From contig MNWS01000226.1 in assembly GCA_001872685.1 (NCBI GenBank), forward strand, positions 1-33,743: 33,743 nt of DNA, in the 5' to 3' direction. Below, piece after piece: positions 14,764 through 33,636 of this stretch. The position numbers were made by a program, and so were the translations under genes. The notes below the pieces were generated by a model. The model did no database searches and was not told the DNA's origin. It worked only from the letters and a program-made list of their open reading frames with translations. This DNA is from Fidelibacterota bacterium CG1_02_48_14 (GTDB lineage Bacteria; Fidelibacterota; UBA8477). Position 1 is the first letter of the stretch; each line of letters begins with the position of its first letter.

Positions 14764-17244
14764 TTGAATCATATAAAATTTTTCTATAAATCCGGTGGGC
14801 TGGCAACCCTGTTAATCATCCTAATCGTGGGATTATTGCCGACCCAAACAATCAACGCACAGGATGACAGTAGGATGGGACCCCATGAAGTGGAGTGGCT
14901 TGCTCACCAGGGTGAGGCTGATCCGATTCTGGATTTAACACCCGATGCACCGATTCAACCGCTGGTTTCATTACGCCGGGACCCTTCCCATGTCATTTTT
15001 GGTTATCACCCTTATTGGAATGGGACCTCCTATACCTCCTACAATTATGATTTACTGACTCACCTTGCCTATTTTGGCGTCGAGATGAACAGTTCCGGTC
15101 AAATCACCAATTCCCACTCCTGGCCGGTGACGAGTCTGATAAATCTCGCCCATAGTAATGGTGTGAAAGTGATTCTAACCGTGACCTTGTTTGATAACGC
15201 AGATATTGGGACGCTGGTAGGTAATGCCAGCTATCGACAGGCTGCTATTGATAATCTGATTACCAGGGTCATACAGGGAAATGCCGACGGCGTGAATATT
15301 GATTTTGAATCGGTTCCGGCTGGGTCCAAAACCAATTTTAATATTTTCATCCATGATCTCACCCAGGCTTTCCACGATCAAATCCCAGGATCAGAAACCA
15401 GCATTGCCATGCCATCTGTTGATTGGTCCAGTTCCTATGATTATGAATATTTAAATGAGAACTGCGACGGTCTTATGATCATGGCCTATGCCTATTACTG
15501 GGGTGGCAGTTCGTCGGCCGGACCGGTTGCGCCATTGTACAATGGCGGCATGGCCAGTTATAACATTGATCGGACGGTCAATTCCTACCTGACAGCCACA
15601 TCAAACGATGGCAGCAATATTTTTCTCGGCTTACCATGGTATGGTTACAATTGGCCGGTCTCAAGCACCGCACAAAATGCCACCACTACCGGGACGGGAA
15701 GTTCGATTGTCTATTCGGTCGCAGAACCGGCGGCAAATTCCTACGGCAAGCATTATAACACGGATGTCCACAGCGCCTGGTACAATTATACCGCCAGCGG
15801 TCAGCAGCGTCAGGTTTGGTACGATGACAGCCTGAGTCTGGTCACGAAATACAACTACGCCAAAACCCGGCAACTGGCCGGGATCGGCATTTGGGCATTG
15901 GGTTATGACGGGAATCGTCCCGAAATATGGGGTGGATTAAATGACGCCTTTGGTGCGTCAACGCCACCACTTTCACCAGGCTGGTTTTATGTGAAAAATA
16001 TCGGTGATGGCAATGTATTGGTCCATGCAGCGAACAGCGCTAATGCTGAGAGTTATCAATTATACCGGAGCCAGGATGCTCAAAATTTCGAATTGTTTCG
16101 TGAAGCGCCATCCCCGGCATTTCTGATTGACTCGCTTCCCATTGATACGATCCAATATTTCAAACTGAAAGCCCTCAACACTTTCGGCGCATCCGATTTT
16201 ACTGAAGTCCTGGCCGTCTCGCCATTTGTGGGTCAGTCAGAAGTGCTCATTGTGAATGGCTTTGAGCGCGTTTCCGGCACCACCAATACCTTCGATTTTG
16301 TGAAAGAACACGGACCGGCAATCTTTGCCGCCGGGTACCATTTCGATTCTGCCAGCAATGATGCCATTCCGCCTGATGTCATTTCTTTGACGGATTACGA
16401 TTTTGTTGATTGGATTTCCGGTGAGGAAGCCACCAGCAATACAGCCTTCAGTGGTAGCGAGATGGATGCCATTTCTGTCTATCTGGAAAGCGGCGGTCGT
16501 CTGATTATCTCCGGTTCCGAAATTGGATGGGATTTAGAAGCAGTGGGTGCGCCACAGGAGATTGATTTTTACCATAACTATTTTAAGGCAGATTATTTCG
16601 TAGACGATGCTGGTTCGTACGAAGTTCAGGCTATGGCTTCCGGACTGTTCAACGGCATACCGAATTTTCATTTCGACGATGGCACCCATGGCACCTATGA
16701 TGTTGATTATCCGGATGGAATCAAACCCTACGGTGGCTCAATCTCCAACCTCCATTTTGCAGGAATAGACTACACCGCCAGTGGTGGTGCCGGAATACAG
16801 TATCGGGGTCCATTCGGAACGAGTAATATTGACGGCGGACTGGTTTACCTGTCTTTTGGTTTTGAAACGATCTACCCGGCCAGCGTGCGGGAAAATGTCA
16901 TGAGCCGGATGCTGGAATATCTGGCGCCCGGGGTTTCAATTGAGAACGAGCAGACAACCACGATACCGATTTCGTTCACTCTGGGAAACGCCTACCCGAA
17001 TCCGTTCAATGGCGCGGTATCTGTTCCTTTCACGCTTCATCAATCCGGCCATTTGAATTTTGCAGTGTATGATATTAGAGGCGCGTTGGTTTTCTCAACA
17101 AACGGCATGTATGGGCCGGGAGAAAGTGTGTGGCATTGGAACGGGCAGTCCCAGTCGGGAGCTGGTCTAAGCTCTGGAACCTATTGGATTGTCGCGTGGA
17201 ATGAGATGACGCTGCAACGATCCAAAGTGACATTTCTGAAGTAG
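14764..17244 (+). CDS. Secreted GH18 glycoside hydrolase with FN3-like, accessory and T9SS/FlgD-type C-terminal domains
   Basis: Signal peptide. DGVNIDFE catalytic motif, IMAYAY, GLPWYG, QVWYDD, GIGIWALGYD. C-terminal NAYPNPFN...VYDIRG...LSSGTY...KVTFLK. TTG start 11 nt after AGGAG. Confidence 0.9.
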   Translation: MNHIKFFYKSGGLATLLIILIVGLLPTQTINAQDDSRMGPHEVEWLAHQGEADPILDLTPDAPIQPLVSLRRDPSHVIFGYHPYWNGTSYTSYNYDLLTHLAYFGVEMNSSGQITNSHSWPVTSLINLAHSNGVKVILTVTLFDNADIGTLVGNASYRQAAIDNLITRVIQGNADGVNIDFESVPAGSKTNFNIFIHDLTQAFHDQIPGSETSIAMPSVDWSSSYDYEYLNENCDGLMIMAYAYYWGGSSSAGPVAPLYNGGMASYNIDRTVNSYLTATSNDGSNIFLGLPWYGYNWPVSSTAQNATTTGTGSSIVYSVAEPAANSYGKHYNTDVHSAWYNYTASGQQRQVWYDDSLSLVTKYNYAKTRQLAGIGIWALGYDGNRPEIWGGLNDAFGASTPPLSPGWFYVKNIGDGNVLVHAANSANAESYQLYRSQDAQNFELFREAPSPAFLIDSLPIDTIQYFKLKALNTFGASDFTEVLAVSPFVGQSEVLIVNGFERVSGTTNTFDFVKEHGPAIFAAGYHFDSASNDAIPPDVISLTDYDFVDWISGEEATSNTAFSGSEMDAISVYLESGGRLIISGSEIGWDLEAVGAPQEIDFYHNYFKADYFVDDAGSYEVQAMASGLFNGIPNFHFDDGTHGTYDVDYPDGIKPYGGSISNLHFAGIDYTASGGAGIQYRGPFGTSNIDGGLVYLSFGFETIYPASVRENVMSRMLEYLAPGVSIENEQTTTIPISFTLGNAYPNPFNGAVSVPFTLHQSGHLNFAVYDIRGALVFSTNGMYGPGESVWHWNGQSQSGAGLSSGTYWIVAWNEMTLQRSKVTFLK

Positions 17245-17296: not shown

Positions 17297-18637
17297 ATGA
17301 ATCATTCATCAGTCTTTCTGAAATTCAGCGTTGGTCTGAACTTACTGTTGCTATTGGCCTGTACCGGGAATCAGCCGGATGTAAAACCACACGCGCACCA
17401 GCAACAAGAGATGGTCGCAGTCCAGAAACCAATTGAAATTTTACCAGTACTCACGGGAATTGATGTTCTGGAGAGGATTAATTTCGCTCCGATTCAGGGC
17501 AAAACCGTAGCTGTCGTGTGCAACCATACCGCCCTGGATAAGCAGGGTCGGCATTTAGTGGATATTTTGTACGAATCACCGGATGTCACCTTGAAAGCCA
17601 TTTTCGCACCCGAACATGGTTTTCGCGGCGTGACCGAGGGGGGATTTGATATAAATGACTCGCTGGATCAGAAGACCGGCGCCATGATTTACAGCATTTA
17701 TGGTGACATTCGCAAACCGACCGCGCAGATGCTTAATGGTGTTGACATGATTATTTTTGACATTCAGGATGTGGGCGCACGGTTTTACACCTATATCTCC
17801 ACTATGGGGAATGTGATGGAAGCGGGTGCGGAACTCGGCATTCCGGTGATGATTCTTGATCGCCCCAATCCAATTTCTGGTTTTACGGATGGCAATATTC
17901 TGGACCTCAAATTCCAGAGTTTTGTAGGGATGTTTCCAATTCCGATTCAGCACGGCATGACAGTTGGGGAATTGGCTCGAATGATTCAAGGCGAGGGCTG
18001 GATCAATCAAGCCGCCGATTTAGATTTGCGCATCGTGAAAAATGAGGGCTGGAGTCGCGATCTGTTTTTCAACGAAACTGACTTGAAATGGGTTGATCCG
18101 TCACCCAACATGCGCAACCTGAATGAAGCGCTGATTTACCCCGGAATGTGCCTCCTCGAAGCCAATATCTGCGCTGAAGGTCGGGGGACTGACAAGCCTT
18201 TTGAGTGGGTCGGCGCACCGTTCATCGATGGGAAACAATTGGCCACCGCCTTGTACGCCGGCGGCTTGGAAGGTGCTACCGTCGAGCCTATCTCATTTGT
18301 ACCCAGGGATATGCCCGGTCGTGCTGTGAACCCGAAATTTGAAGGCCAAAAAGTTAATGGCATCCAAATCCGGGTGACCGAGCCCATGGAATTTCAGCCG
18401 GTTCAGTTCGGCGTGAAATTCCTGGTAACGGTCAAACGGCTTTATCCCAGAGATTTTAAGTGGGTAAGTGAGAGCCGCGCTGCAAGATTGTGGGGCAGCG
18501 AAACACTGGTGCAGATGATCGCTGCCGGGAAATCTGCGGATGACATTATCGCAAGTTATCAACCGGAACTTGACCAATTCAAACTTAGGCAGCAGCGATA
18601 TTTGCTCTATCCGAGCAGTCGGGCGGGCAATTTATAG
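17297..18637 (+). CDS. namZ: Second NamZ family (DUF1343) lipoprotein
   Basis: Lipobox LLAC. TGIDVL, CNHT, FAPEHGFRG, FDIQDVGARFYTY, LDRPNP, HGMTVGELA, PSPNM, EGRGT, YLLY. Confidence 0.93.
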   Translation: MNHSSVFLKFSVGLNLLLLLACTGNQPDVKPHAHQQQEMVAVQKPIEILPVLTGIDVLERINFAPIQGKTVAVVCNHTALDKQGRHLVDILYESPDVTLKAIFAPEHGFRGVTEGGFDINDSLDQKTGAMIYSIYGDIRKPTAQMLNGVDMIIFDIQDVGARFYTYISTMGNVMEAGAELGIPVMILDRPNPISGFTDGNILDLKFQSFVGMFPIPIQHGMTVGELARMIQGEGWINQAADLDLRIVKNEGWSRDLFFNETDLKWVDPSPNMRNLNEALIYPGMCLLEANICAEGRGTDKPFEWVGAPFIDGKQLATALYAGGLEGATVEPISFVPRDMPGRAVNPKFEGQKVNGIQIRVTEPMEFQPVQFGVKFLVTVKRLYPRDFKWVSESRAARLWGSETLVQMIAAGKSADDIIASYQPELDQFKLRQQRYLLYPSSRAGNL

Positions 18638-19287: not shown

Positions 19288-22200
19288 TCACCAGACATCC
19301 GGCACGGTGTCAAGCACAATCCGGAGTTTACTGGCAAGCGCTTGCACGGTGAATGGTTTTTGGATGAAATTAACGCCGTCATCCAGCACCCCGCGATGCG
19401 CAATGACATTAGCAGGATAGCCTGACATGAAAACGACTTTGATGCGCGGGTACAACTCCTGAACGCTGGTGGAAAACTCACGACCATTCATCTCAGGCAT
19501 CACCACATCTGTCAGTAGCAGATCAATTTTGTGCTGTTTCTCAGTTTCCAATAGCGACAACGCGTCCCGGGGTCTTCCCACTGCAATAACCCGATATCCC
19601 AGACTCGTCAGGATCGCCTTGGTCATTTCAAGAACTTCCCGCTCATCTTCTACAATCAGGATCGTCTCACCCTGGCTGCTACGAACTGTCCCGGAGTCCT
19701 GCAACATCTGTTTAGCGGTCAATCCCTTGAATCGAGGTAAATAAATGGTGAATGTGGTTCCAAAACCGGGTTCGCTGTCCACGGTGATAAAGCCATCGTT
19801 TTGTTTCACTATTCCGTAAACTGTCGCCAGGCCTAACCCTGTTCCCTTACCAACTTCCTTGGTCGTGAAAAATGGTTCAAAAATTTGTTCGGCAGTCGCC
19901 GTATCCATGCCAATACCATTATCACTGACGGAAATGGAGACATAATCACCCGGGCTTGAGCCTGGGTGTTCAGCACAAAATGACTCGTCAGAGACAATGT
20001 TACGGGTAGAAATTTTGATCTGACCCACACCGGAAATGGCATCCCGGGCGTTCACACATAGGTTGGTCAAAATTTGGTCTATCTGTGATGGATCAATTTT
20101 TACCGACCAAATCTCTTCACCGGGATTCCACTCCAGATCAATTTCTTCATTGATCAGCCGGTGTAACATTTCCACCGATTGTTCAATGGCATAGTTCAGT
20201 TCCAGTGACTGTGGGTGAATGGCTTGTTGCCGGGCAAAGGTCAAAAGTTGCCGGGTAATCTCAGCCGAGCGGTAGGTTGCCCGGAGGATGCCCTTTAAAT
20301 CGGCTTCCACTGTTTGTTTCTGTTCCAACCTTTCAAGCGCCATTTCGGCGTGTCCGCTGATGACGCTTAACATGTTGTTATAGTCATGAGCAACACCGCC
20401 AGCCAACCGTCCCACCGCTTCCAACTTTTGTGACTGCGCCAATTGATCCTGGAGTTTATCATGCTCCGCCTCAGCCAGTTTGCGATCAGTGATGTCCTGA
20501 AAAGATCCAATCATGTGGGTACATCGCCCGGTAATACTAAATACCGGGGAGACACTAACCACGCCCGATTTCTGACCAACACGCAGGTTGAAATTTTCTT
20601 CCCAGGTCACGGTCTGTTTTTCCTCAATTGCGCGTTCAAGATTCGCACGGAATTGATTTAGAGAGGCTTGGGGAATGACATTTGCCAGCGTTTGGCCGAG
20701 GACTTCTTCAGAGTGCGCACCGGTCATTTTCAGGAATGCAGGATTGACGGATTCGAACCTGAACCTGGGACCGGCTTCCACCGTCAGAGAGAAAATTCCG
20801 TCTGCTACTGAGCTATAAATCAGATCGAGTTGCTGATTTTGTAGTTGTAATGCTGCTTCAGATTTTTTCCGGGCAGAAATATCCCGGACGATGACCTGCA
20901 CACCCACCTCCCTGTCGAGACTGATCGATGTTGTCGCGACTTCGGCGTCAAAAACCCGTCCCTTGCGTGAGATCATTTTTTCCTCAATGAGGGGGACTTG
21001 TCTTTTGTGTTTTGTAATATTTTCAACCCGTTCTCTCATAAGATGGTGGAAATCGGGATGGATAAGATCCATCACCGGCGTATTTATAAAATCCTTTAGA
21101 TCCGATACTTCAAACAATTTCAGCGCAGCGGCATTGGCATACTGAATGAATCCGTTGATCTGAATGTATAATGCGTCTGGTGATGCCTCTACCAGATTAC
21201 GGAATTTCTCTTCACTCTCCTCTATACGCCGCGCAGCATTCACCTGGGTCGTAATATCGGAAATGACATGTACCGCCCCCGTCAATTCGCCGTCATCACT
21301 CCAAATCGGATCGGCAACAACTCTGAATATCCGGTCGTTCATCTCCATCTCTATGCTTTCGCGTTGATTTGACGCTTGCATTTCTATAAATGGGCAATAA
21401 GAAAGTGGTTCGTCACAAGCATGCACGATATGGTAGCAATAATGAAAATTGATCTCTTGATCGGTTTTGTTAAACAGCTTTTTGAACGCCTCGTTGCTTT
21501 GCTGGATTTTCTGGTCGCTGTCCAGTAAAGCAATGGCATCATCACTGGCATCAAAAGTTTTTGACCAATTATTAGCGAAATTACGAATCCGCGAATCAGC
21601 TCGTTTTTGCGCAATGATGTTCCAGGTGATGTCCCCCAGATAACCAATACTCTCTAAATCGTCCTCCGAATATTCAGTCTCACGATTCCCGATTCCAAAC
21701 ACAGCCACCACATGATCGTTGCGAATAATGGGGATCACCATTTCACGAGTTAACTCGGCGTGTCCTTCGGGCAACCCTTTCTTATTCGGCAGCGATGCAT
21801 AATCATTGTGAATAATGGGTCGTTTTTGTCGGATACTATCCGCCCAAATGCCTGCTGAGGATACGGGATAGTGAATTTGTTCGCCTTCGGCGTGACAATA
21901 GATTGCGCGAGTCTGGGTAGACCACTGTTGCAGCAGAATGGTTTCCTGATCCTCCTCCACAAAATGGTAAAAGCCGATGGGGCTGTCCGTATAGGCGCAC
22001 ATTTCATCCAATGTTTTTACCAATAATTCATCAATGGTGTGTGTGGTGGCGTAATCGTGAAGTAAAACGCGCAGTTGCAGCAACAAATGGGAACGTTGAT
22101 CCTCCGTCCGATCCCGGAAGGAAAGCACCGCACCAATAATTTTACCCGAATTATCAAAAATTGGTGCTGCATTGTCGGTAATGGGAATTTCCCGGCCATC

Positions 22201-23589
22201 GCGAGTCAGGAGTAAAGGATATTCAACGGCAGTGACAGGTTTTTTGTCATCCAGCGCCAGGAGTACAGGATGAGGTGGCGACTCACGTGTGTCCCGGTTA
22301 ATGATTTTGTACACCTCCGTGACTGACTTACCCAGGGCATCCGGTCCTTTCCAGCCCGTAAGCACCTCTGCAGCCGGGTTCATAAATTCAATGAACCCTT
22401 TCGTATCGGTGGAAATCACCCCATCACCAATGGCGTGCATCATCACACTATGGCGTTCTGATTCGGTGCTGTAGGCTAGTTCCGACTCGTAGAGATTTTG
22501 GAAGTGTTTTTTCAGCTTTATTTGCCAGAGCATGAATCCGCCAACGACACCCAACCCAAACAACACCGCAATCAAAACCAGGATAAATCCGGAATGTTTA
22601 TGCCAGTGTGCATAAATTTCGTCCGAATCGATTTTGGAAATCAGGAGCATTTCGGAATTTGGAACCGGTAGGATATAGGCTGTGGTAAGGACATTTCGAT
22701 AATCAAGACCCGTTACAATTCCCCTCTGACCATTGATGGCTTTAACAGCGACGTGTTCTGATTTGGCAACATCCATTTTAAAAGTAAGTGCTGTCTTGGG
22801 ACGGTGTCGCAAATCATTCAGATATTCCGCTTTTTGGCTGGATTTCCGTATGAGCAGCGTTTCGGCAGATTTGCTGGATGTTGGCCAGGATTGGATCAGT
22901 GGATAGAGAAATTGCTCAGGATTCAGGACAATAACCAGTGCGCCCATGAGATTAGAATCTGTGTCAATGTCTTGATACACCGGCGCAACAACACCCAACT
23001 CGGGTGAAAGCGTATCCATATCCTGTAAATGCAGCGTGATAATTTCCGGTCGGTGATTTTGCAGTACTGCATGGAAAGCGGTGCGGAAGGCATTGTCGTT
23101 CTCCGTGTGACCATTCAAACTGAGAAGTTGCTCTCCAACGGAAGACATCAATACGACATCAATGGATTCATTTTGTCTGACGATACTCTTGAAATGGAGT
23201 AGCAGATCGCCACGGTTGGCGGCAGAAGGATCGCCCATATATCGCAACAAGCTCTGTCTTAATGGCGAATCAGCGGCGTAATCGGTCGCGTCTTCCATCT
23301 GATCTTCAATCCAAAGCGAAATTTGGCTGACTTTAATCTGGGCGATGGATGCCAGTTCATCTTCTGCATTTTTTTGCATCATCCTGGCTTGTGCGTGGTA
23401 AAAAGCGAACCCGCCCGTTACAATTCCCGCCAGAATGAGCAGGAATATCGTGCGCAGCCATCCCGGAAAGACCTGCCTTTGGATTTGATTGATTCTGGAA
23501 ATGGTTACCGTCAAACTTTCCCCCCGGGGTCGGGCGATCTTCAAACCCGCCTGAATGAACCTGATGCGGCGACTTGAATCTAAGACCAA
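19288..23589 (-). CDS. Membrane-bound hybrid sensor histidine kinase (Cache-like, PAS, GAF, PAS x3, HisKA, HATPase, REC)
   Basis: Two TMs around an extracytoplasmic domain. PAS ends [83 protein letters not shown]. The true start may be TTG at 23514, after GGGGGA. Confidence 0.95.
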
Positions 23590-24291: not shown

Positions 24292-24696
24292 ATGAATCAA
24301 ACAGAAAAAACGTTTGCAGATTATAAAGGGACTGAAAATGTTCTGGTTGTGGAGGACGAAGAGATGACCAGAAATATGGTAACAGAGATATTGGAAGGAT
24401 TGGGCTACACAGTTCTGAATGCTCCGAATGCCGAGACTGCCATCGAAATTTCTGACGATTTTGAGGACGATATTCACCTCCTGCTCTCGGATGTCATCAT
24501 GCCACTCATGAATGGTAAACAATTGTCTAATCAACTAGCCATGTCCCGCCCCACCATGAAAGTGCTGTTTATGTCCGGCTATACCGACAACATGCTGGCG
24601 CCTTACGGCATTCTCGAGGAAAATATTCACTTCCTGCAAAAGCCATTTTCTGTCAAGATTCTGACCCAAAAAGTACGCGAGACGCTTGATAGCTAG
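24292..24696 (+). CDS. Single-domain response regulator (REC only)
   Basis: VLVVEDE, LLLSDVIMP, FMSGY, LQKPF. GGGAG RBS upstream. Confidence 0.92.
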   Translation: MNQTEKTFADYKGTENVLVVEDEEMTRNMVTEILEGLGYTVLNAPNAETAIEISDDFEDDIHLLLSDVIMPLMNGKQLSNQLAMSRPTMKVLFMSGYTDNMLAPYGILEENIHFLQKPFSVKILTQKVRETLDS

Positions 24697-24879: not shown

Positions 24880-27800
24880 ATGGCTCATGCGAATAAATTT
24901 GGCACTTTCAGCGGCGTTTTCACACCCGCGATCCTGACAATTCTGGGCGTCATCATGTACATGCGTCTGCCGTCAATCGTGGGTCAGGTTGGTCTGATTG
25001 CCACCCTGGGTATTATCCTCTTGGCGCACGTCATTTCGGTGACAACCGGACTCAGCGTCTCCTCTATTGCAACGGATAAAAAGGTGAAAGCCGGCGGCAC
25101 CTATTACATGATTTCCCGGAGTTTGGGATTGCCCATTGGTGGTACGCTTGGTTTAGCGCTCTTCGTCGGTCTCTCCTTCAGTGTCAGTTTGTACATCATC
25201 GGATTTTCTGAAAGCTTCATCAATTTTTGGGGTTGGAGCATCAATAAGAATACGATTCGACTGGTGGGTTCCGGTGTTTTGGTTCTGGTCACGACCGTAA
25301 CCTTTATCAGTACCGCTCTGGCGATCAAAACCCAGTATTTCATCATGGCTGCAATTGTTCTGTCATTGGCATCGATATTTCTGGGGTCACACGGAACCAC
25401 ATCAGTGCCGCACATTGCCCTGCCAACGACCGCGGTACCACTTGTGGTTCTTTTCGCGATTTACTTTCCGGCGGTCACCGGTTTTGAAGCCGGTGTTTCC
25501 ATGTCCGGTGATCTGAAAGATCCGAAACGCTCAATCCCAATCGGCACGATCACCGCTATTTCGGTTGGGCTGGTTGTCTATGTTACCATGGCAATCTTTT
25601 TTGCTTACCGTGTAGACCCGGACGAGTTGGTAAACAATCCAAACGTGTTGTTGGAGATTTCACTTTTTCCCCCACTGGTTCTGGCGGGCATTTGGGGCGC
25701 TACGATTTCATCGGCATTGGGAAGTATTCTGGGGGCACCGCGCATTCTCCAGGCGATTTCAGCCGATCGCATTACACCCCGGATTTTTGCCACCGGTGTT
25801 GGGAAGGAAAACGAACCCCGGAACGCACTGCTCCTGACTTTCATGATCGCTGAAGTCGGAATCTTAATCGGAGAATTGGATGTTATCGCCCGGGTTGTGA
25901 CCATGTTTTTCATCATGACCTATGGATTTTTGAATACCAGTTGCGCGATTGAAAGCTGGGCTAGTCCTGATTTCCGGCCCGATTTTAAAATCCCAAAAAC
26001 GGTGAGCATTATTGGCGCATTAGCAGCGTTTTTGGTGATGATTCAATTGGACTTTGTGGCCATGATCGGCGCAACATTGATTCTGGGAGCGCTCTTTTTT
26101 TACCTCAAACGCCGTGAATTGACGCTGGAATCCGGTGATACCTGGGAGGGTGTCTGGTCATCACTCGTACGAACTGCACTGCACCGCTTGAGCAAAGGTG
26201 AGGTTCATCAGCGTAACTGGCGACCCAATCTGATCTTATTCAGTGGCGGTAAAGGAGCTCGACCACATCTGGTTGAATTGGGACGGTGGTTGGTCGCCCG
26301 GCGTGGCATATTGTCCGATTTTCAGCTCATCGAAAATCCCAAAGTTTCGAGTCTGGTGATCCGGAACCGTAAGGAAATTGAGCTCGCAAATGCCGCGATT
26401 CCGGAAGAGGAGAATTTTACGGGTCGCTTCGTCCGCCGGGCTGAAACGAACGACATCTATGCCACGATGCAGGAAATCGTCAAATTCTATGGTTTTGCCG
26501 GGGTGGAGCCGAATTCTGTTTTATTGGGCTGGGGGCGGAATAGTCGTGAACCAAAAAAGTTCGTGGACGTTTTGGCGACCTTGCAACAGATGGATTATAA
26601 TGTTTTACTGCTGGATCATGATGATGTACGCGGCTTCGGTGACCACGCCAGCGTTGACATCTGGTGGCGGGGTGGCGGAAATAATATTAGTCTGGCGTTA
26701 GCGCTCATTCGTTTTCTGGCTTCAAGTGACGATTGGCGGGAAGCCAACATCCGACTTCTCATCGTGAATGATGATGAAAGTGCGTTGCGGGAAACCATTC
26801 TCAAACATGCCAACAACATTTTGGAAGAGTACCGCCTGGACGCCGATGTCAAAGTCATCAATAATGCCATTGAGCAGAAAAATTTCCAGGAAATTATTCG
26901 GGTTGAGTCGGCCCATTCAGATTTTACAATCATCGGAATCCCACCGCTGAACACTCGGGATCCACTGAGTTATGTGGATTTCGTGAATCAGATCGCCAAC
27001 GACCTGGGATCGGTTCTCTTGATCCATGCCTCGTCATTTTTTGAAGAATTGTATGTGGGCATTAATCAGGAAAGTACCGCCGCGCCGGATGAAATCAACA
27101 TTCTGGCGATGGAATCGTCCAACCTGCCGGTGGTTGTTCCGCCCCGGGCTGAGTTGACAGCCAGCGCCATTGAACGGCTCACCGCGGCTCTGGACCAAAT
27201 GAACATCAGGTTGACCGATCAGCATCTGTACAAGGTCATTTCACAACAACTGGCTTTGATCGGGCAATTCCAGGATTTAACTGAACGAAGTTTTGATGCC
27301 TTAGAGCGCAATTTCACCAAAGATGCCAGGCTTCGTAATCGTCGGGCTTTGCTCCGGGTAAACAGCGATTTTCTTTTCCAGGCTCAACGGCTGCTCACCG
27401 AATTCCGTCAGACGGATTTGCCGCTTCAGAAAGCAGCTTTGACGGATGGTGTCGAACATCACCGCAGCCAGATAAAAGAGCTGATTGCAGCCCAGCCCGG
27501 ATCCATCACCCTTGCCTTTACCCGAAGTGAGTACAGGAGCGCAAAGGAAAGCGGTTACCTGATGCGGCAGTATCAATTCTGGAAAAGATTCAGCGCTAAA
27601 CTTTCACGCAAAAATGTCATTTCTCACCAGGTAAAATTCCGGGAATTGGTTGCCGGGCAACTCGCCAACAAATACGATCCGATGTTGTTGAGCGTCCTTG
27701 AGCGATTCGGCATTTACAGCTATCAAACCGTTGCCGACCTCCAAAAGGCGATCAGTTTAGTCCGGGAAAGCTTTGGCATATTGGAAAATCGCATTCTTGC

Positions 27801-30051
27801 GGGGGAAGGTTTCCCCATCGAACAATTGTATGCTCAGCGCAAGCAGGTTTTGGCGGGGACGGAGAGAATTGCAGAGGTTCTAAAAGAACGTCAGGCGCAA
27901 CTGCGGCATATTCTGCTGAAAGAGACCCGGGAAATTCTCATACAACTCAGCCATACGGCCGATCATATAGATTCGAATCATTGGGTTCCGAAGGAATTCA
28001 AACCCAATAAGCAGTCCATGACGGTTTCTGACACTCTCACGGAATTGTCGGAACGCTGGTTCGGGAATCAGGCTGATTTCCTGGAAATGGCCGTCCTGGA
28101 TGTCCAATTATTAGCGTTACAAAATCGGCTGGGAACGATTGTCGAGCGGATGAAAGATGACGTAACCCTTCGCATCCAAAATACGGTTTTGGGTGAGTTG
28201 GCCGGTTTGCGGGACGAGCTGAATACCCTCAAAGCGAGCGCATCGAAAAATTCACCGGTTCGAAACAACCATTTCACCTACGATGCTCCGGTCCCGCTGG
28301 ACCCCATCGCTGTCATGAACGAATTGTTAGTGGAAGTACATGCCGCTACCAGGGATTTACCCGAGAATGTTGATGTCATCAGCGAAGCGGCCATGAATGA
28401 TCTGGAAGCTCATCAGTTCGAGGAACAGGAGGTTCTGACAATCGCTTTGCGACGCCTGGCTGAATACATTGTGGAATCAGAATTCCTGGGACCCCTCCAG
28501 GAACGGATGAATCAATTACCAAATATTTTTCAGGGAGCACAGACTGTCGCTCAGGATGTCTTGCGCTTGACGACATTCGATTTGATTGAGACCGAAAGCA
28601 ATGAGACGCTCACCGATTTCGCACAGCATGAGACGCGGCAGAAAATTCTCATCAACGGTGATAATCGACTCGCAGAGGAACTAACCCGGATACAGCAGGT
28701 ACAGGATGATTTGGGAACCTTCATTCAGCAGCAGTTCAGGAAAACCAAAGATCAATTGAATCCGTATAGTATTGTTCATTCAGCGGACACTTACCAGCAA
28801 TACATTCGCGGCCGCCGAACCCGGGGTGTGGTCACACGTTTTCAGCGCACCCGCCTGCAAGTGGAGCGCTTCACCACTGAAAAATTTGTGCAATTGCTGT
28901 ATCGGCGGAGTGAAGGCGTTCTTTTCGCGCGCCGACTCCAGGCCGACAAACAATCGTCACAAACGATTACTGATAAAATGCTGAATTTGTTGGATCAGGT
29001 GACACCGAAGCCGGAAATCGTTGAGAATTTGCCTTTTTACTACAAACAACTCTTTTTGGGCAAACCGACTATAACGAACGATTTTTGGATAGGTCGCGAG
29101 CACGAATTAGAGCTCGCCGATAAGGCGGTTGGCCGATTCAACCGGGGCTATGGTGGTGCTCTGTTCATTATTGGTGAAGAGCACATGGGCAAATCGGCGT
29201 TGGCACAATTCATCGCCTCCCGGCATTATGAAAAGCATCGTATTTTCACCATCAACCCGCCGGACAGCGGTAGTACATCGCTGGAAGAATTCACCCGGCG
29301 GCTGCAACAAGCGGTTGAGATGACCAGTGGACCGGATGAAATATTGGGTCAGTTGACCAATAGGAATGTGGTGGTTTTTAATGATGTTGAATTGTGGTGG
29401 GAGCGGAGTGATTCAGGTTGGGCGGTGTTGCAGGAGCTACTAAATCTTATTCGACAATACAGTCGCCAAACACTGATGATCCTGAACCTGAATCAGTACA
29501 CCTACAATTTTCTGGCACCCATGTGTGACTTTCAGGAATTAGCCTTAAGTGTCATCGAATGTGAGCCCTATGACGCTGAGGAGCTGAAAAATATCATTCT
29601 GTTACGTCATCGTTCCACGGGTCTGCGATTCGAATGGGATGGCATTGAGGATGCAGATATTTCCGAATGGAAGTTGGCTAAGTTGTTCACGGGACTCTTT
29701 GACTATTCCCGGGGCAATGTAGGTGCTGCCTTGCGTGCCTGGATAGCGGCTATTCATAAAAATACCAAGGGGAAACTAATTCTAAAATTGCGGCCCTATC
29801 CGGATACCAGCGCTCTGCGTGGACTGGATGTGGAATCAATCACGCTAATGCTCCAATTCGTCCTGCATAAGCGCATGAATCGAGAGAAAATTGCCCGCAT
29901 TACGAGGTGGTCAACAGATCAGATTGAGAATCAAATCCAGTTCCTGCAAAACACCGGATTGATAACGACCCAGGCGCAGGAAGTCCTGATTATCAACCCC
30001 TACCTGGAGTCTTTCCTCATTCGTAATCTGAAAGAGCGGGGGTACCTGTAA
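24880..30051 (+). CDS. Cation-chloride cotransporter (SLC12/CCC-like) fused to a long helical region, a P-loop NTPase and a putative winged helix
   Basis: CCC motifs FGTFSGVFTP..LTILGVIMYMR, GGTYYMISRSLG, YFPAVTG, SGDLKDP, GAPRILQA, NWRP, DIWW. Walker A GEEHMGKS at 29173-29196 and Walker B-like VVVFNDVE. One uninterrupted 1723-aa frame. Confidence 0.9.
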   Translation: MAHANKFGTFSGVFTPAILTILGVIMYMRLPSIVGQVGLIATLGIILLAHVISVTTGLSVSSIATDKKVKAGGTYYMISRSLGLPIGGTLGLALFVGLSFSVSLYIIGFSESFINFWGWSINKNTIRLVGSGVLVLVTTVTFISTALAIKTQYFIMAAIVLSLASIFLGSHGTTSVPHIALPTTAVPLVVLFAIYFPAVTGFEAGVSMSGDLKDPKRSIPIGTITAISVGLVVYVTMAIFFAYRVDPDELVNNPNVLLEISLFPPLVLAGIWGATISSALGSILGAPRILQAISADRITPRIFATGVGKENEPRNALLLTFMIAEVGILIGELDVIARVVTMFFIMTYGFLNTSCAIESWASPDFRPDFKIPKTVSIIGALAAFLVMIQLDFVAMIGATLILGALFFYLKRRELTLESGDTWEGVWSSLVRTALHRLSKGEVHQRNWRPNLILFSGGKGARPHLVELGRWLVARRGILSDFQLIENPKVSSLVIRNRKEIELANAAIPEEENFTGRFVRRAETNDIYATMQEIVKFYGFAGVEPNSVLLGWGRNSREPKKFVDVLATLQQMDYNVLLLDHDDVRGFGDHASVDIWWRGGGNNISLALALIRFLASSDDWREANIRLLIVNDDESALRETILKHANNILEEYRLDADVKVINNAIEQKNFQEIIRVESAHSDFTIIGIPPLNTRDPLSYVDFVNQIANDLGSVLLIHASSFFEELYVGINQESTAAPDEINILAMESSNLPVVVPPRAELTASAIERLTAALDQMNIRLTDQHLYKVISQQLALIGQFQDLTERSFDALERNFTKDARLRNRRALLRVNSDFLFQAQRLLTEFRQTDLPLQKAALTDGVEHHRSQIKELIAAQPGSITLAFTRSEYRSAKESGYLMRQYQFWKRFSAKLSRKNVISHQVKFRELVAGQLANKYDPMLLSVLERFGIYSYQTVADLQKAISLVRESFGILENRILAGEGFPIEQLYAQRKQVLAGTERIAEVLKERQAQLRHILLKETREILIQLSHTADHIDSNHWVPKEFKPNKQSMTVSDTLTELSERWFGNQADFLEMAVLDVQLLALQNRLGTIVERMKDDVTLRIQNTVLGELAGLRDELNTLKASASKNSPVRNNHFTYDAPVPLDPIAVMNELLVEVHAATRDLPENVDVISEAAMNDLEAHQFEEQEVLTIALRRLAEYIVESEFLGPLQERMNQLPNIFQGAQTVAQDVLRLTTFDLIETESNETLTDFAQHETRQKILINGDNRLAEELTRIQQVQDDLGTFIQQQFRKTKDQLNPYSIVHSADTYQQYIRGRRTRGVVTRFQRTRLQVERFTTEKFVQLLYRRSEGVLFARRLQADKQSSQTITDKMLNLLDQVTPKPEIVENLPFYYKQLFLGKPTITNDFWIGREHELELADKAVGRFNRGYGGALFIIGEEHMGKSALAQFIASRHYEKHRIFTINPPDSGSTSLEEFTRRLQQAVEMTSGPDEILGQLTNRNVVVFNDVELWWERSDSGWAVLQELLNLIRQYSRQTLMILNLNQYTYNFLAPMCDFQELALSVIECEPYDAEELKNIILLRHRSTGLRFEWDGIEDADISEWKLAKLFTGLFDYSRGNVGAALRAWIAAIHKNTKGKLILKLRPYPDTSALRGLDVESITLMLQFVLHKRMNREKIARITRWSTDQIENQIQFLQNTGLITTQAQEVLIINPYLESFLIRNLKERGYL

Positions 30052-30785
30052 TGGATATGCTCTCCTTTGATGTCTCTGAATATCTCATCGTGAAATATGT
30101 GCTGCTGGGGTTGTTACTGGTGGGTGTATTGATTGGACTGCGGAAGGGTTTGCATCTGATCCAACTGAAGCCAACGACGCGTGAACGCATTGATCGCTCG
30201 TTGCCTCTGGTGGAAGCACTGATGGGATTGATTTTCATCGTCCTCGCGGCTCACTCGATTTTTCAAAACCAACCAACTTATTTCATGGTGCTATTTAGCG
30301 CGATTCTTGTCATTCTGGTTTGGAGCTTTTGGTTCGCCATTCAGGATTTTGTCAGTGGTCTGATTTTGAAATGGGAGGACACTTACACGGTAGGTGATCT
30401 GCTCACAGTCGAATCGGAGACGGGTCGGGTAATCCGGGTCGGGTACCGTTCCTTGATGATTGAAACAGCGGATGGTCAACGCATCAAGTTCCCCTATTCG
30501 CATTTGACCCGAACCCAGGTTCACAAGCTGGATGCAGATGAAGTGGTCTGGGCACACACATTCCAAATGGCGGTTCCATTAATGGATGCTCCCGAAGTAA
30601 TGATGAAGCGAATCATTCTGGCTGCGACTAATGTCGTTTGGTCGGCGGTCAATCGGGTTCCACAGGTCGTCTTCCAGGGGGTTCAGAATGGTGTGCAACT
30701 ATTTGAAATTACAGTATATGTGCTGGATCCTAACCGCCGCAGTACCATCGAGTCGCGTATACGGGAATCGCTGGGTAACACATAA
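30051..30785 (+). CDS. MscS-family mechanosensitive ion channel domain protein
   Basis: 3 TMs, then QDFVSGLIL...VGDLLTV..ETGRVIRVGYRSLMIETADGQRIKFPYS. ATG overlaps the upstream TAA (TAATG). Confidence 0.88.
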   Translation: MDMLSFDVSEYLIVKYVLLGLLLVGVLIGLRKGLHLIQLKPTTRERIDRSLPLVEALMGLIFIVLAAHSIFQNQPTYFMVLFSAILVILVWSFWFAIQDFVSGLILKWEDTYTVGDLLTVESETGRVIRVGYRSLMIETADGQRIKFPYSHLTRTQVHKLDADEVVWAHTFQMAVPLMDAPEVMMKRIILAATNVVWSAVNRVPQVVFQGVQNGVQLFEITVYVLDPNRRSTIESRIRESLGNT

Positions 30786-30799
30786 AATTACCGGCTTAC

Positions 30800-30840
30800 A
30801 AATAAAAAAATGCCGACGCAAAGGTCGGCATTTTTTATTT
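30800..30840. terminator. Bidirectional intrinsic terminator
   Basis: AAAAAATGCCGAC-GCAAAG-GTCGGCATTTTTT between convergent genes. Confidence 0.92.
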
Positions 30841-30863
30841 CATTCAGGGTGTCGTTGTTACGG

Positions 30864-32216
30864 TTATTTATTTTTAAAATCGGTCTTTTCTGGCGAGAGT
30901 CTAAAGACGACCGGAATGGTAATCACAGCCTCAACGGGTTGGTTGTGCAGCATCGCCGGATTCCAGGTAACTTTCTCGATTGCCGCCACAGCAGCTTCAT
31001 TCAATCCACCTTCCGGGATACCCCTGACCACCTGCGATTGAACGGCTGCGCCAGTAATGGAAATTTTTGTCTGAACAATGACGGTTCCTTGAATGCCGGC
31101 TTTTCTCGCCAAATCCGGATATTGAACCGCTCTTTGAATCGCACCGTAACCACCCAATGGCTCCGGTGGCGTATCGAAGTTCACTGCGATGCTATCTTCC
31201 ATTGTCTTGGCAAGTGAATGATCCGACTCCGAATGCGCGGTGAGGCGATCATCCTTACCCATGTTACAACTCACAACCAATGCCAATACAACGACCATTC
31301 CCATGAGCATTTTATGATACATCTTAAGTCCCTCCTCCAAATCTGATTGTTTGCGGACGATATATTCAAACCGCCTTACCAGGCTGTGTTTGGTGAAAAA
31401 AAATCCACTGGCTAACACGGCATGGTGGACATGATTGGTGGATCGTTCAAGCTGATTCAGCAAATTCCGACCGTAGCCTTTGCGATCCGCATTAGTCGCG
31501 CGGATGGCAGCGTCGTCACAAATGCGCTCGCGTTCCAAATCCATCTGGTCATTCAACAACCAAATGGCAGGATGAAACCAATAGATCATTTTAACGATGG
31601 CTTGCAGATGAATCACCGCGAGATCCAGTCGTCTGATGTGAGCCATTTCATGGGCGATGACGCTGAGTATTTCGGAATCTGACCAATTTACAACGGTGTC
31701 TGGCAGGTAAATCCGGGGTCTTAATAATCCCAGTGAGAATGGATTTTGAACGTCCGGCGAAATCAGGATGAAGGGCGTTCGGGAAAGCTTCTGACTGGTG
31801 AGAAAGGCGTTGATGCGAGTCGGGACGATCCAAGGTGTTGCATCTCCAAGGGTCTTTCGGAATCGGATGTCATTCACCACCAATCTGACCAGGAAAAACA
31901 TCGCACCACCTAACCACAGACTGACGATCAATAGTGCTATAGTTATCGTTGAGTTACTGCCACCGCCTAAAGTAACCTGGGGAAGTTGGGTGATAAAATT
32001 CGCTGACTGACGCTGAATGGTTGTATTTACAAGTTCTATTGGCAGGTTGAAGGGCAACAGTGCCTTAAGAAGCAAAATACTCCATAATCCGTAAGCAAAT
32101 TCAGGATGCGAATTTCTGCTGATTCTTGAAATTGGCCAGATAAGGAGTGTCAGAAATGCCAGTTGCCAGGATGATTGCCAAAGCATGGATAACACAGTGG
32201 AGAAAAAATCAACCAT
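30864..32216 (-). CDS. BlaR1-type M56 metallopeptidase fused to a TonB C-terminal domain
   Basis: GLLRPRIYLP, HEMAH zinc motif, YWFHP, ERICD. C-terminal YPDLARKAGIQGTV...GLNEAAVAA...WNPA...IPVVFRL (TonB_C). Confidence 0.9.
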   Translation of the reverse strand: MVDFFSTVLSMLWQSSWQLAFLTLLIWPISRISRNSHPEFAYGLWSILLLKALLPFNLPIELVNTTIQRQSANFITQLPQVTLGGGSNSTITIALLIVSLWLGGAMFFLVRLVVNDIRFRKTLGDATPWIVPTRINAFLTSQKLSRTPFILISPDVQNPFSLGLLRPRIYLPDTVVNWSDSEILSVIAHEMAHIRRLDLAVIHLQAIVKMIYWFHPAIWLLNDQMDLERERICDDAAIRATNADRKGYGRNLLNQLERSTNHVHHAVLASGFFFTKHSLVRRFEYIVRKQSDLEEGLKMYHKMLMGMVVVLALVVSCNMGKDDRLTAHSESDHSLAKTMEDSIAVNFDTPPEPLGGYGAIQRAVQYPDLARKAGIQGTVIVQTKISITGAAVQSQVVRGIPEGGLNEAAVAAIEKVTWNPAMLHNQPVEAVITIPVVFRLSPEKTDFKNK

Positions 32217-32604
32217 TTTGATCCTCCGCTTCCTTCAGCATTTGCCGGATGACTAGAATATCCTCCGGTTGCAAATTGATATTAGGCAGAAGAAAAGCGG
32301 CCAGCCGGCTGGCAGATCCACCAAAAACCTGGTTTACGAAGTGGCTTGTCGCGCCTTCGACGACGCTGGAACGGTTCACCGTGGCGGTATAGAAATTCAC
32401 CAGCCCAAGTTTTTCCTTTTGCAGGTAACCCTTTTCCACGAGACGCTCCAAATAGGTCTGAATGGTTGTATAAGCGCGCCGGTGTTCAACCGGTAAAGCC
32501 TCCATGACCTCTCTGGCGGTCTGTCGACTCTTCTCCCAAATTCGATTCATGATAGTCCACTCGAATTTACTCAACGGTTCAAGATTTTTCTGCCTGTGGC
32601 CCAT
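32209..32604 (-). CDS. BlaI/MecI/CopY family transcriptional repressor
   Basis: LSKFEWTIMNRIW, AYTTIQTYLERLVEKGY, FVNQVFGGS. AGGAG RBS. 8-nt overlap with the M56 gene. Confidence 0.93.
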   Translation of the reverse strand: MGHRQKNLEPLSKFEWTIMNRIWEKSRQTAREVMEALPVEHRRAYTTIQTYLERLVEKGYLQKEKLGLVNFYTATVNRSSVVEGATSHFVNQVFGGSASRLAAFLLPNINLQPEDILVIRQMLKEAEDQNG

Positions 32605-32751: not shown

Positions 32752-33636
32752 TCAGCCAGGAAGGTGGGCGAGCAGTTCGCGGATTTTCTTTATCGTGATT
32801 GGCGCGGAACCTTCGTAGTGATTGTTGATGTTGAGGAATACATTGACGCGATTTTGACGCAAATGCTGGATCATCTTCACAATGGTTTCCAGCTCATCAT
32901 CCTTAGGCCGTAACACCCGGCTCCAGTCTCCGCCACTTTCATTTTCAATGCCACTCCGATCGGGACCGTGCAATCGAATGACCACATTCCCCGCCAATGA
33001 CGGATAAATCTTCCGGTAGGTCTCTACAATATTCGGCATGTAGTACCCATGCAGCAATACAGGTGTAAGGTTGAGTTCCCTGAGCCAGTCAAAGAATCGG
33101 CGGTTCAAATAGTTGGGATTACGAATTTCCACGGCGTGGATCAGGTTCGGGGGCAGGTGTTCGGCAAATGTTTGAAACCGGCGTTGGAAGTCTGTCTGAC
33201 TTGGCATTTTATGCTTATTCAAATATTCAAATTGATACAGCAACGCGCCGATTTTCGTGCCAAAAGGTTCGAGCTGATGCAGCGTCGTTTTAAGTAAGTC
33301 GGGTGACAGAAAGTGCGGATTGGTTTCCAATTCGTCTGAGGGCTTTTTTCGATAAAAGTGTGTCAGCGTCAGGCTGTTTGGCATTTTGATCGTGAACCGA
33401 AAATTGTCCGGAACGCTGGCGGCGTAATCTTCGACAATCTGTGGATCCGGCAACACCACCTTATCCGTTCCAAATAGCGACCAAAACCATTGGTCAATCT
33501 CAACGGTATCGAAAATCTGGGAATATGCCGTCAGGTAATCCCGGTTTTTGATCGTTTCGTCCGAATAAACCAATCCACGCCAGGAATCATATTTCCAGCT
33601 ACAGGTGCCTATTCGTAGTGTCCCGAGTTCAGGCAT
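32752..33636 (-). CDS. DUF72 (YecE-like) domain protein
   Basis: RIGTCSWKY..W.G.VY, FDTVEID, FRFTIK, LTH, LLYQF, AVEIRN, IRLHG, NNHYEGSA. Confidence 0.92.
   Translation of the reverse strand: MPELGTLRIGTCSWKYDSWRGLVYSDETIKNRDYLTAYSQIFDTVEIDQWFWSLFGTDKVVLPDPQIVEDYAASVPDNFRFTIKMPNSLTLTHFYRKKPSDELETNPHFLSPDLLKTTLHQLEPFGTKIGALLYQFEYLNKHKMPSQTDFQRRFQTFAEHLPPNLIHAVEIRNPNYLNRRFFDWLRELNLTPVLLHGYYMPNIVETYRKIYPSLAGNVVIRLHGPDRSGIENESGGDWSRVLRPKDDELETIVKMIQHLRQNRVNVFLNINNHYEGSAPITIKKIRELLAHLPG

Follow-up and report, generated by a model that had tools for sequence, protein, structure and literature searches.

Why does a bacterial cation-chloride cotransporter (CCC) run on for some 960 residues past the cytosolic domain, after which characterised CCCs end? 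The question is raised by P0001, a gene of Fidelibacterota bacterium CG1_02_48_14 at positions 24880..30051 on the + strand of contig MNWS01000226.1 (assembly GCA_001872685.1), of which positions 1 to 33,743 were analysed and are referred to here as the window. The original prediction, made from the letters alone, read the product as a single giant transporter fused to a helical stalk, a P-loop nucleoside triphosphatase (NTPase) and a winged helix (WH). Our analysis leaves that architecture standing but not the single-gene view, which had overlooked the MscS-like gene at 30051..30785: the tail belongs to an independently occurring protein family whose conserved partner is an MscS-type channel, and the unit to be explained is therefore a two-gene system rather than a transporter with an odd tail.

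P0001 is an uninterrupted open reading frame (ORF) of 1723 codons, and the domain calls follow the order that had been claimed, all on the + strand. The SLC12/CCC transmembrane (TM) domain (residues 1-440; 24880..26199), recognized by Pfam AA_permease, by alignment to KCC4 and by hydrophobic segments that are confined to residues 10-396, is followed by the SLC12-type cytosolic C-terminal domain (residues ~441-750; 26200..27129), for which the evidence is the alignment to KCC4 7d99, TIGR00930, and PF03522 in homologues. Then come a helical arm or 'stalk' (residues ~764-1375; 27169..29004), delimited by hhalign against the stand-alone family described below and by composition and periodicity, an AAA_16-type (ORC/Cdc6-STAND-like) P-loop NTPase (residues 1376-1640; 29005..29799), assigned from its AAA_16 score and column counts, and a putative C-terminal WH (residues 1641-1723; 29800..30048) that has profile matches to winged helix-turn-helix (wHTH) proteins. 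The motifs on which the prediction had been built are all in the translation, namely NWRP (446-449), DIWW (593-596), WIGREHEL (1403-1410), GEEHMGKS (1432-1439), VVVFNDVE (1497-1504), YSRGNV (1609-1614) and the terminal wHTH-like stretch, and its domain boundaries were roughly right, with the added module beginning near residue 764 according to profile comparison. The G+C content is 0.48-0.50 across the gene and no different in the flanks, and the gene is present in one copy in its own assembly (3.02 Mb, 277 contigs, 89% complete).

The tail as an independent family with an MscS-like partner

A genome of the same order encodes P0267 (1006 residues; L086:1546-4566, + strand), a protein without a transporter domain that consists of arm, NTPase and WH, and whose last 375 residues align with residues 1362-1717 of P0001 (BLASTP E 3e-18). 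Its relatives, of about 976-1125 residues, carry database labels such as 'ATP-binding protein' or 'hypothetical', and the stand-alone protein scores 31.5 bits with nSTAND1 (gathering cut-off 27.1). When the profile of the fused family (A2) was compared with that of 37 stand-alone proteins (A6) by hhalign, residues ~764-1723 of P0001 matched positions 13-1031 of the stand-alone family over 936 columns (probability 100%, E 1.1e-57), and the motifs ahead of and inside the NTPase were common to both forms. Profile comparison showed the last ~960 residues of P0001 to be a complete copy of a protein family that exists also without the transporter; since the match extends over the whole tail, arm, NTPase and WH are one inherited unit. 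A third architecture, of which one such protein was seen, is that of P0318 (1409 residues), in which an Na_H_Exchanger (CPA) domain at 41-420 precedes the module at 531-1406 (hhalign E 1.4e-35). When a tree of the NTPase-WH segments was calculated by a quick maximum-likelihood search, a branch (SH-aLRT 100) separated the 67 fused sequences from the 37 stand-alone sequences and P0318, a split that is compatible with a single event in which transporter and module were fused.

The stand-alone family has a partner of its own. The gene for P0267 is followed after 7 nucleotides by that of an MscS-like protein, P0268 (318 residues; L086:4573-5529, + strand). Among 80 metagenome loci of the stand-alone form (L096-L175), five were without the 3' end and 69 of the other 75 had at least 700 nucleotides downstream; an MscS-like ORF of 258-395 residues on the same strand lies -7 to +208 nucleotides past the stop in 66 of these 69 usable loci, and of the three exceptions, two offer too little room and in one the stop was misassigned. 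One to three extra MscS-like genes stand in tandem, 1-2.9 kb past the first partner, in L099, L103, L105-L108, L123, L125, L127 and L141.

The same arrangement is found behind the fused gene. In the window, the MscS-like ORF (30051..30785, + strand, 244 residues) begins at the last base of the P0001 stop codon (TAATG), and, judging from this overlap, the two genes are translationally coupled. The partner matches PF00924 with E 1.9e-11 (44.4 bits against a gathering cut-off of 20.2) and has three hydrophobic segments; positions 11-225 of its family profile align with residues 29-242 of E. coli MscS, from TM1 to the alpha/beta domain (E about 1e-16). We kept 80 loci for the fused family (genome counts given here are lower bounds or samples), of which 12 with an incomplete big gene were set aside, leaving 68. 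A same-strand ORF of 228-296 residues starts -56 to +204 nucleotides from the stop in 60/68 of them, with an overlap of 4 nucleotides in 23 of those 60, and an iterated search from the window's protein found every one of the 60 to be MscS-like (PF00924 in 56/61). When flanking ORFs were clustered, the MscS-like cluster was the sole widely common neighbour (62/80 and 69/80 loci), and the next cluster occurred in 14/80. Downstream of the pair in the window, a hairpin with a 13-bp stem and T runs on both strands (30805..30836, no strand assigned) is likely to be a bidirectional terminator closing the two-gene operon; it came from a consensus scan in which such sites were no more numerous in the region than expected from shuffling. 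The count of sigma-70-like sites in the promoter scan likewise did not exceed shuffled expectation, so no promoter is claimed.

Other neighbours of the fused gene are less frequent, comprising Na_H_Exchanger proteins (14 of the 80 loci), PD40-repeat proteins (13), histidine kinases (11) and Usp proteins (5). The Na_H_Exchanger gene, of about 424 codons and mostly in Cytophagales-like records, adjoins the fused pair divergently upstream in 12 loci (L009, L011, L016, L023, L033, L048, L051, L054, L059, L060, L062 and L068) and downstream in two (L006 and L007); many of the loci with these less frequent neighbours belong to related Cytophagales and lack phylogenetic independence. In four of the 14 Na_H_Exchanger loci (L009, L059, L060 and L068) the MscS-like partner is a remnant or missing. 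The receiver gene (24292..24696) and the hybrid kinase gene of the window were considered as conserved parts of the unit and rejected, their homologues being present in 1/80 and 8/80 loci, respectively.

The transporter part

Residues 1 to ~750 were shown by sequence comparison to make up a full SLC12/CCC cotransporter in which the residues of the K+ site, of both Cl- sites and of the NKCC-type Na+ site are kept. Pfam AA_permease (PF00324) matches residues 13-450 with E 7.5e-45 (153.9 bits against a gathering cut-off of 24.6), and the NCBIfam model TIGR00930 ('K-Cl cotransporter') gives E 8.8e-117 with its best stretch at 252-674, although the score of 391.5 bits is far under the cut-off of that model (953.4). 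The top 32 matches in a search of PDB sequences were all SLC12 chains (E 5.8e-79 to 4.4e-54), the best being human KCC4 (7d99, E 5.8e-79), aligned with residues 2-661 and thus over the TM domain and well into the cytosolic domain. On the cytosolic segment of the window's protein, PF03522 (SLC12) scores 18.1 bits (E 0.0015), below its gathering cut-off of 27; on the same segment it scores 30.3 and 29.8 bits in two homologues, and it is a precomputed match for many of the 120 homologues analysed here.

The ion sites were mapped by reading the alignment to KCC4 7d99 against PMC11994965 and PMC9713717. On this basis, N131/I132, Y216 and P429/T432 of the K+ site in KCC4 correspond to T20/I21, Y105 and P197/T200 in P0001, G134-V135-I136 of the Cl1 site to G23-V24-I25, and G433 and Y589 of the Cl2 site to G201 and Y348. 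The TM1 Asn of the KCC4 K+ site is therefore replaced by Thr in P0001; the corresponding TM1 contact in NKCC1 is made by a backbone carbonyl, according to PMC9713717. For the Na+ site in TM8, A610/S613/S614 of human NKCC1 align with A274/S277/S278, and a search with the TM8 segment alone returned human NKCC1 first (E 2.7e-13), followed by NCC (5e-9) and the KCCs (4e-6). The KCCs carry G-A at that place, which is given as the cause of their not binding Na+ (PMC9713717).

Most of the ion-site residues do not vary among 55 aligned homologues and reach a conservation of at least 95% in the 120. No part of the protein is better conserved than the transporter domain, with a mean consensus fraction of 0.69-0.90 over 50-residue windows of the membrane domain. 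Given this conservation, the carrier has the appearance of a functional symporter for Na+, K+ and Cl- of the NKCC-like kind, with an inferred stoichiometry. About 12 residues precede TM1, so that there is no counterpart of the N-terminal phospho-regulatory region of animal CCCs.

NTPase, winged helix and arm

The isolated segment of residues 1375-1723 reaches the cut-off of Pfam AAA_16 (PF13191; 33.9 bits against 32.6, E 5.4e-8), in agreement with the predicted P-loop fold, and the full-length protein stays under it with 27.8 bits. Among 67 C-terminal segments drawn from genome loci and aligned, with Pfam matches counted at E <= 0.1, 61 matched AAA_16, 48 AAA_22, 25 ATPase_2 and, weakly, 32 nSTAND3. 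A profile search of PDB gave weak matches of the NTPase to ClpC (6lsy, E 1.5e-4) and to Cdc6 (2qby_A, E 0.004; 31-204 against 24-211), and the ESM Atlas returned 'hypothetical' clusters of 329-793 residues with AAA_22/AAA_16, which we take as leads only.

The Walker residues, whose conservation had been left to be checked, are kept across the 120 homologues. In Walker A (residues 1432-1439; 29173-29196, + strand), G1432 and G1437 are present in 120, K1438 in 119 and S/T1439 in 117; in the Walker B region (residues 1497-1509; 29368-29406, + strand), a hydrophobic strand is followed by D1502 (110) and E1504 (113). Further conserved columns are W1507 and R1509 (120 each), N1536 (110), R1576 and H1577 (120 each) and, in the region of the lid, G1612 (120), N1613 (111), G1615 (116), A1617 (115) and W1621 (120). 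We take this order of motifs to resemble that of ORC/Cdc6 and of the STAND NOD, in which a strand and a P-x-D/S-x-E-E-L helix ending in Arg are followed by the lid motif G-[DN]-x-x-x-A and then by a WH with a conserved His. N1536 and R1576 are candidates for the roles of sensor 1, arginine finger or sensor 2, and the position of the sensor-2 Arg of Cdc6 would appear to be taken by Gly1615 in P0001. The array of C-terminal sensor repeats of classical STAND proteins (NACHT, NB-ARC, Avs-like) is absent from P0001, as the protein stops at the WH, and NACHT itself gave weak matches in 4/67 members.

The WH is matched at profile positions 263-334 by PDB entries including 1uly (E 4.9e-4) and 4mnu (E 0.0019), in a range extending to E 0.0025, and the Pfam model wHTH-PRTase_assc matches the C-terminal segment at E 0.013, below its cut-off. 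His1663 is invariant (120/120). At the exposed start of the third helix (residues 1678-1680), however, D/E occur in 51, 67 and 42 of the 120 homologues and K/R in 0, 7 and 5, and a surface that is variable and acidic at this place speaks against the reading of specific DNA sequences. The terminal wHTH-like segment that had been predicted resembles the structural WH found in ORC/Cdc6-STAND ATPases more than it does a domain for reading DNA.

The arm keeps its length with few gaps, yet it is the least conserved part of the protein (mean consensus fraction 0.26-0.49 in 50-residue windows). No Pfam model matched it in more than 2/67 members, a PDB profile search gave nothing below E 0.01, and a search of the ESM Atlas gave no usable match. 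A dynamin/OPA1-like stalk was considered, as OPA1_C matched with E 0.0021 on the full protein and 0.00079 on the stalk alone; the match occurs in 1/67 members and was judged to be due to chance. A crude propensity analysis, in which Pro and Gly together make up only 6.2% of residues, Leu, Glu, Gln and Arg are abundant and the hydrophobic period is 3.6-3.8, lends crude support to an arm made of amphipathic helices packed as bundles and not of a canonical heptad coiled coil.

Reality and spread of the fusion

The best 120 of 1233 homologue matches are 1669-1814 residues long with identities of 40-82%, and in 119 of them the best local alignment covers 98-100% of the query, the remaining one, P0115, being covered at 42%. 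By source name these 120 come from Marinimicrobia, Calditrichota, Bacteroidota, Ignavibacteria, SAR324, Desulfobacteraceae, Gemmatimonadetes, Latescibacteria and Leptospiraceae. A pattern search with one genome per species found a relative encoded in at least 595 of at least 599 matches, some of which may be plain CCCs, as the search patterns sit in the membrane domain. Record titles identify cultured carriers of the fused family in Flexithrix dorotheae DSM 6795, Labilibaculum filiforme and Mangrovivirga halotolerans. At the level of DNA, a frame of at least 1650 codons is uninterrupted in 66/80 fused loci, and the remainder are cut by contig ends or interrupted. The fusion is hence not unique to this assembly, and with full-length homologues conserved and the frame uninterrupted in other loci, a chimera or assembly artefact is ruled out.

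An exhaustive profile search with the module returned 1410 representative clusters at E <= 1e-30, fragments included. Among the best 150 representatives are 82 proteins of 1650 residues or more in which the match lies at the C-terminal end, and all 65 shorter ones that were newly returned and checked are colinear with the fused form from an internal start to within 50 residues of the C-terminus, as fragments would show, which points to 5'-truncated calls. Close to the fused family, the C-terminal module was also sought as a protein by itself or in split form; just 13 proteins came up, of 191-611 residues and mostly on contigs of 1-6 kb, and they were rejected as separate architectures.

Contigs of closely related strains in four groundwater or aquifer DNA runs span the internal junctions of the gene (X1 record 4, 26410-30900; X2 record 11, 27172-30900; X5 record 18, 26410-28682). 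The window may stem from the same campaign as these runs, which are not independent support. Strain differences across both genes, 38 of which were listed, comprise 29 synonymous and 9 non-synonymous ones, and the whole frame is under purifying selection. The coding region of the cytosolic domain contains an assembly bubble at strain level (26319-26439), where the contigs of all four runs either break off or fork into two variants, with four synonymous differences that are linked.

A proposed nucleotide switch and its alternatives

Taken together, we lean towards the hypothesis that the gene pair encodes a regulatory nucleotide switch that is functionally coupled to the MscS-like partner and to the transporter and that serves ion and osmotic homeostasis. 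In this proposal, the NTPase and WH would not be a motor but would respond to nucleotide state in the manner of ORC/Cdc6-STAND switches, with the ATP and ADP states selecting different conformations or assemblies. The switch would communicate through the helical arm with the MscS-type partner, a sensor of membrane tension or a valve. In this family it has become attached to the cytosolic domain of an NKCC-like symporter for Na+, K+ and Cl-, and one controller might thereby govern both the uptake of salt and a release or sensing that depends on tension; this would be a prokaryotic counterpart of the phospho-regulation acting on the cytosolic termini of animal CCCs. Direct physical coupling of module, MscS-like partner and transporter in one complex is a more doubtful proposition. 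Equally tentative is the specific model in which the arm and the ORC/Cdc6-like NTPase form a portable, hitherto unrecognised ion-flux controller that docks to the cytoplasmic cage of the MscS-type channel, reads or sets the tension-dependent state of that channel and relays it to the attached transporter. If it were true, the pair would amount to one bacterial 'volume-regulation machine', whose nucleotide state would switch the uptake of salt and the emergency valve in reciprocal fashion, and to an independently arisen mechanistic analogue of the WNK-SPAK control of animal CCCs.

Several observations weigh against the proposed switch. The eight fused loci of 68 that are without an intact MscS-like neighbour (one with a full-length interrupted copy, three with a C-terminal remnant and four with nothing within 3 kb) indicate that the transporter part evidently can persist without an adjacent partner. 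In addition, the pore-lining helix of the partner has changed. Over the 23 profile columns ahead of a conserved R-D, the fraction of Gly and Ala is 0.14 in partners of the fused form (n=61) against 0.30 in those of the stand-alone form (n=68), and that of aromatic residues 0.20 against 0.06, so that the helix of the fused family is bulky and rich in Leu, Trp and Phe, whereas the stand-alone partners, which are longer (median 323.5 against 243 residues), keep the canonical Gly/Ala-rich helix. A Gly/Ala-rich pattern in TM3a is needed for packing of the MscS type, and with its loss the partner of the fused form may not conduct as MscS does; it may instead have shifted from valve towards sensor, as the altered helix would allow. 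Further, MscS channels are heptamers and CCCs are dimers, with which one fixed complex sits awkwardly. The position of the Walker A Lys is variable in the 37 stand-alone proteins (R in 13, K in 10, I in 5, A in 3, T in 2, and others), and hydrolysis may therefore not be essential to the core role of the module. Finally, the distribution is patchy, since 9/301 sampled genomes of the phylum match a query of the stand-alone form, five of them fused and four stand-alone.

Alternative to a switch, the arm and NTPase might be a scaffold or assembly device that oligomerises or positions transporter and channel, for example in clusters, and gates neither, so that the link between the two genes would be one of co-expression. 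NTPases of the AAA_16 and ORC/Cdc6-STAND kinds work by nucleotide-dependent assembly, and the degenerate Walker A Lys of the stand-alone family and an arm that is conserved in length but weakly in sequence would both suit such a device. However, the nucleotide site is flanked by invariant residues in the fused family, and a module that occurs with three different ion-transport partners is a better fit for a regulator; neither point is decisive, and we consider a pure scaffold unlikely.

Less probable still is a role in conflict, in which a STAND-like NTPase would sense an invader and open the CCC, the MscS-like pore or both, collapsing the ion gradients in a form of abortive infection. STAND-type NTPases with membrane effectors are frequent in defence, and the weak nSTAND3 matches, BrxC_BrxD matches in 11/67 members, the nSTAND1 score of the stand-alone protein and the patchy phyletic spread could all be read in this way. 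By contrast, neither P0001 nor the MscS-like protein matches any PADLOC family, the sensor repeats that would follow the WH are lacking, and the transporter domain is the best conserved part with all its ion-site residues kept. The company of the genes is also not that of defence, as the recurrent neighbours are Na_H_Exchanger, Usp, histidine kinase and PD40 genes, and those in the window are a PAS/GAF hybrid kinase, a receiver, a BlaR/BlaI pair and glycosidases.

It is very improbable that hydrolysis by the NTPase drives or primes ion movement through the CCC and so turns a secondary carrier into a primary pump. The canonical Walker A and B motifs conserved in the fused form would be expected of such a pump, but the sites for the coupling ions are intact, as in a secondary symporter of Na+, K+ and Cl-, the NTPase lies about 600 residues from the transporter in sequence, the module also occurs transporter-free with a degenerate Walker A Lys, and ATPases of the ORC/Cdc6-STAND type are switches and not transport motors. 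A membrane-tethered transcription factor, whose terminal wHTH would bind DNA and report transporter or ion status to gene expression, is scarcely credible, because its ArsR/MarR-like profile matches (1uly and 4mnu) are set against a putative recognition helix with a variable, mostly acidic start, against conserved WH residues that are hydrophobics of the buried type plus His1663, and against the fact that ORC/Cdc6 and STAND ATPases as a rule carry a WH behind the lid as a structural element.

Relation to known systems

With the animal cotransporters NKCC1 and KCC1-4 (PDB 7d10, 7d99), P0001 has in common the LeuT-fold domain of 12 TM helices and, behind it, a cytosolic domain of the SLC12 type, as well as the ion sites and the physiological theme of cell volume and chloride control. 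It differs from them in having no counterpart of the large extracellular loop of KCC4 (~317-429) and no N-terminal regulatory region, and in its ~960 additional C-terminal residues with a P-loop NTPase. Characterised CCCs are regulated by phosphorylation (PMC8280820).

The closest relative of the system is the pair formed by the stand-alone protein of about 1000 residues and its MscS-like neighbour, which has the same arm, NTPase and WH and the same gene order, but is without the transporter domain, varies at the Walker A Lys and has the longer partner. P0001 shares with the ORC/Cdc6 and STAND NTPases (AAA_16, AAA_22, ATPase_2, nSTAND) both Walker motifs, an Asn that comes behind the following strand, a motif containing Arg, the lid motif G-N-x-G-x-A and, after it, a putative WH in which a His is conserved; unlike them, P0001 attaches a transporter and a 600-residue arm, and it has neither DNA-replication partners nor the C-terminal sensor repeats of STAND proteins. 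The MscS-like partner is shorter (~243 residues) than E. coli MscS, YnaI, MscK and MscM, has a pore-lining helix rich in Leu, Trp and Phe instead of Gly and Ala, and is always encoded after an NTPase-containing protein. A cytosolic nucleotide-binding module on or beside a cation transporter is a principle also known from the RCK/KTN domains of Trk, Ktr and Kef, and the cytosolic domain of KCCs reportedly binds nucleotides as well (PMC8280820). These pockets are of the Rossmann type or USP-like, however, and lack a P-loop, whereas the module of P0001 is an AAA+-class P-loop NTPase with a WH on a long arm.

In the full-text literature, with subscription papers and TCDB outside the search, we found no description of a CCC with a P-loop module, of an MscS relative with a P-loop partner, or of a functionally characterised prokaryotic CCC with a regulatory system, and members of the family go under such database names as 'amino acid permease', 'ATP-binding protein' and 'hypothetical'. 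Within the same scope, the stand-alone family is likewise undescribed. The parts belong to known families; new, as far as that literature goes, are the arm, its fusion to a transporter and the fact that an MscS-type gene is an obligate companion.

SLC12 transporters and MscS channels are among the best-studied families in the control of cell volume, and if the arm-NTPase protein and its MscS-type partner form a physical complex, they would represent a new class of ion-flux controller. The module, found with three different ion-transport partners, would be a candidate for a general class of regulators. The system, in which an NKCC-like carrier is covalently linked to its presumed regulator, is also compact and genetically tractable, and it could reveal how the CCC cytosolic domain passes on regulatory input, what effect a nucleotide switch has on an MscS-type channel, and how bacteria handle Na+, K+, Cl- and turgor beyond the paradigm of Kdp, Trk and BetP.

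Other genes in the window

Convergent with the MscS-like gene is a pair of the BlaR1/BlaI type on the - strand, comprising a BlaR1-type M56 peptidase sensor fused to a TonB C-terminal domain (30864-32216) and, overlapping it, a gene for a BlaI/Penicillinase_R repressor (32209-32604). Just upstream of P0001 lies the gene of the stand-alone receiver protein (24292-24696, + strand), and before it that of the hybrid histidine kinase (19288-23589, - strand), a protein of 1433 residues with dCache, four PAS, GAF, HisKA, HATPase_c and receiver domains. Further upstream, a GH18 glycosidase with a weak match to a Por-secretion tail (14764-17244, + strand; 22.1 bits against a cut-off of 27) adjoins a NamZ exo-beta-N-acetylmuramidase (17297-18637, + strand), which suggests a cluster for the salvage of peptidoglycan or chitin. 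Near the other end of the window, a DUF72 family protein (E 8e-36) is encoded at 32752-33636 on the - strand.

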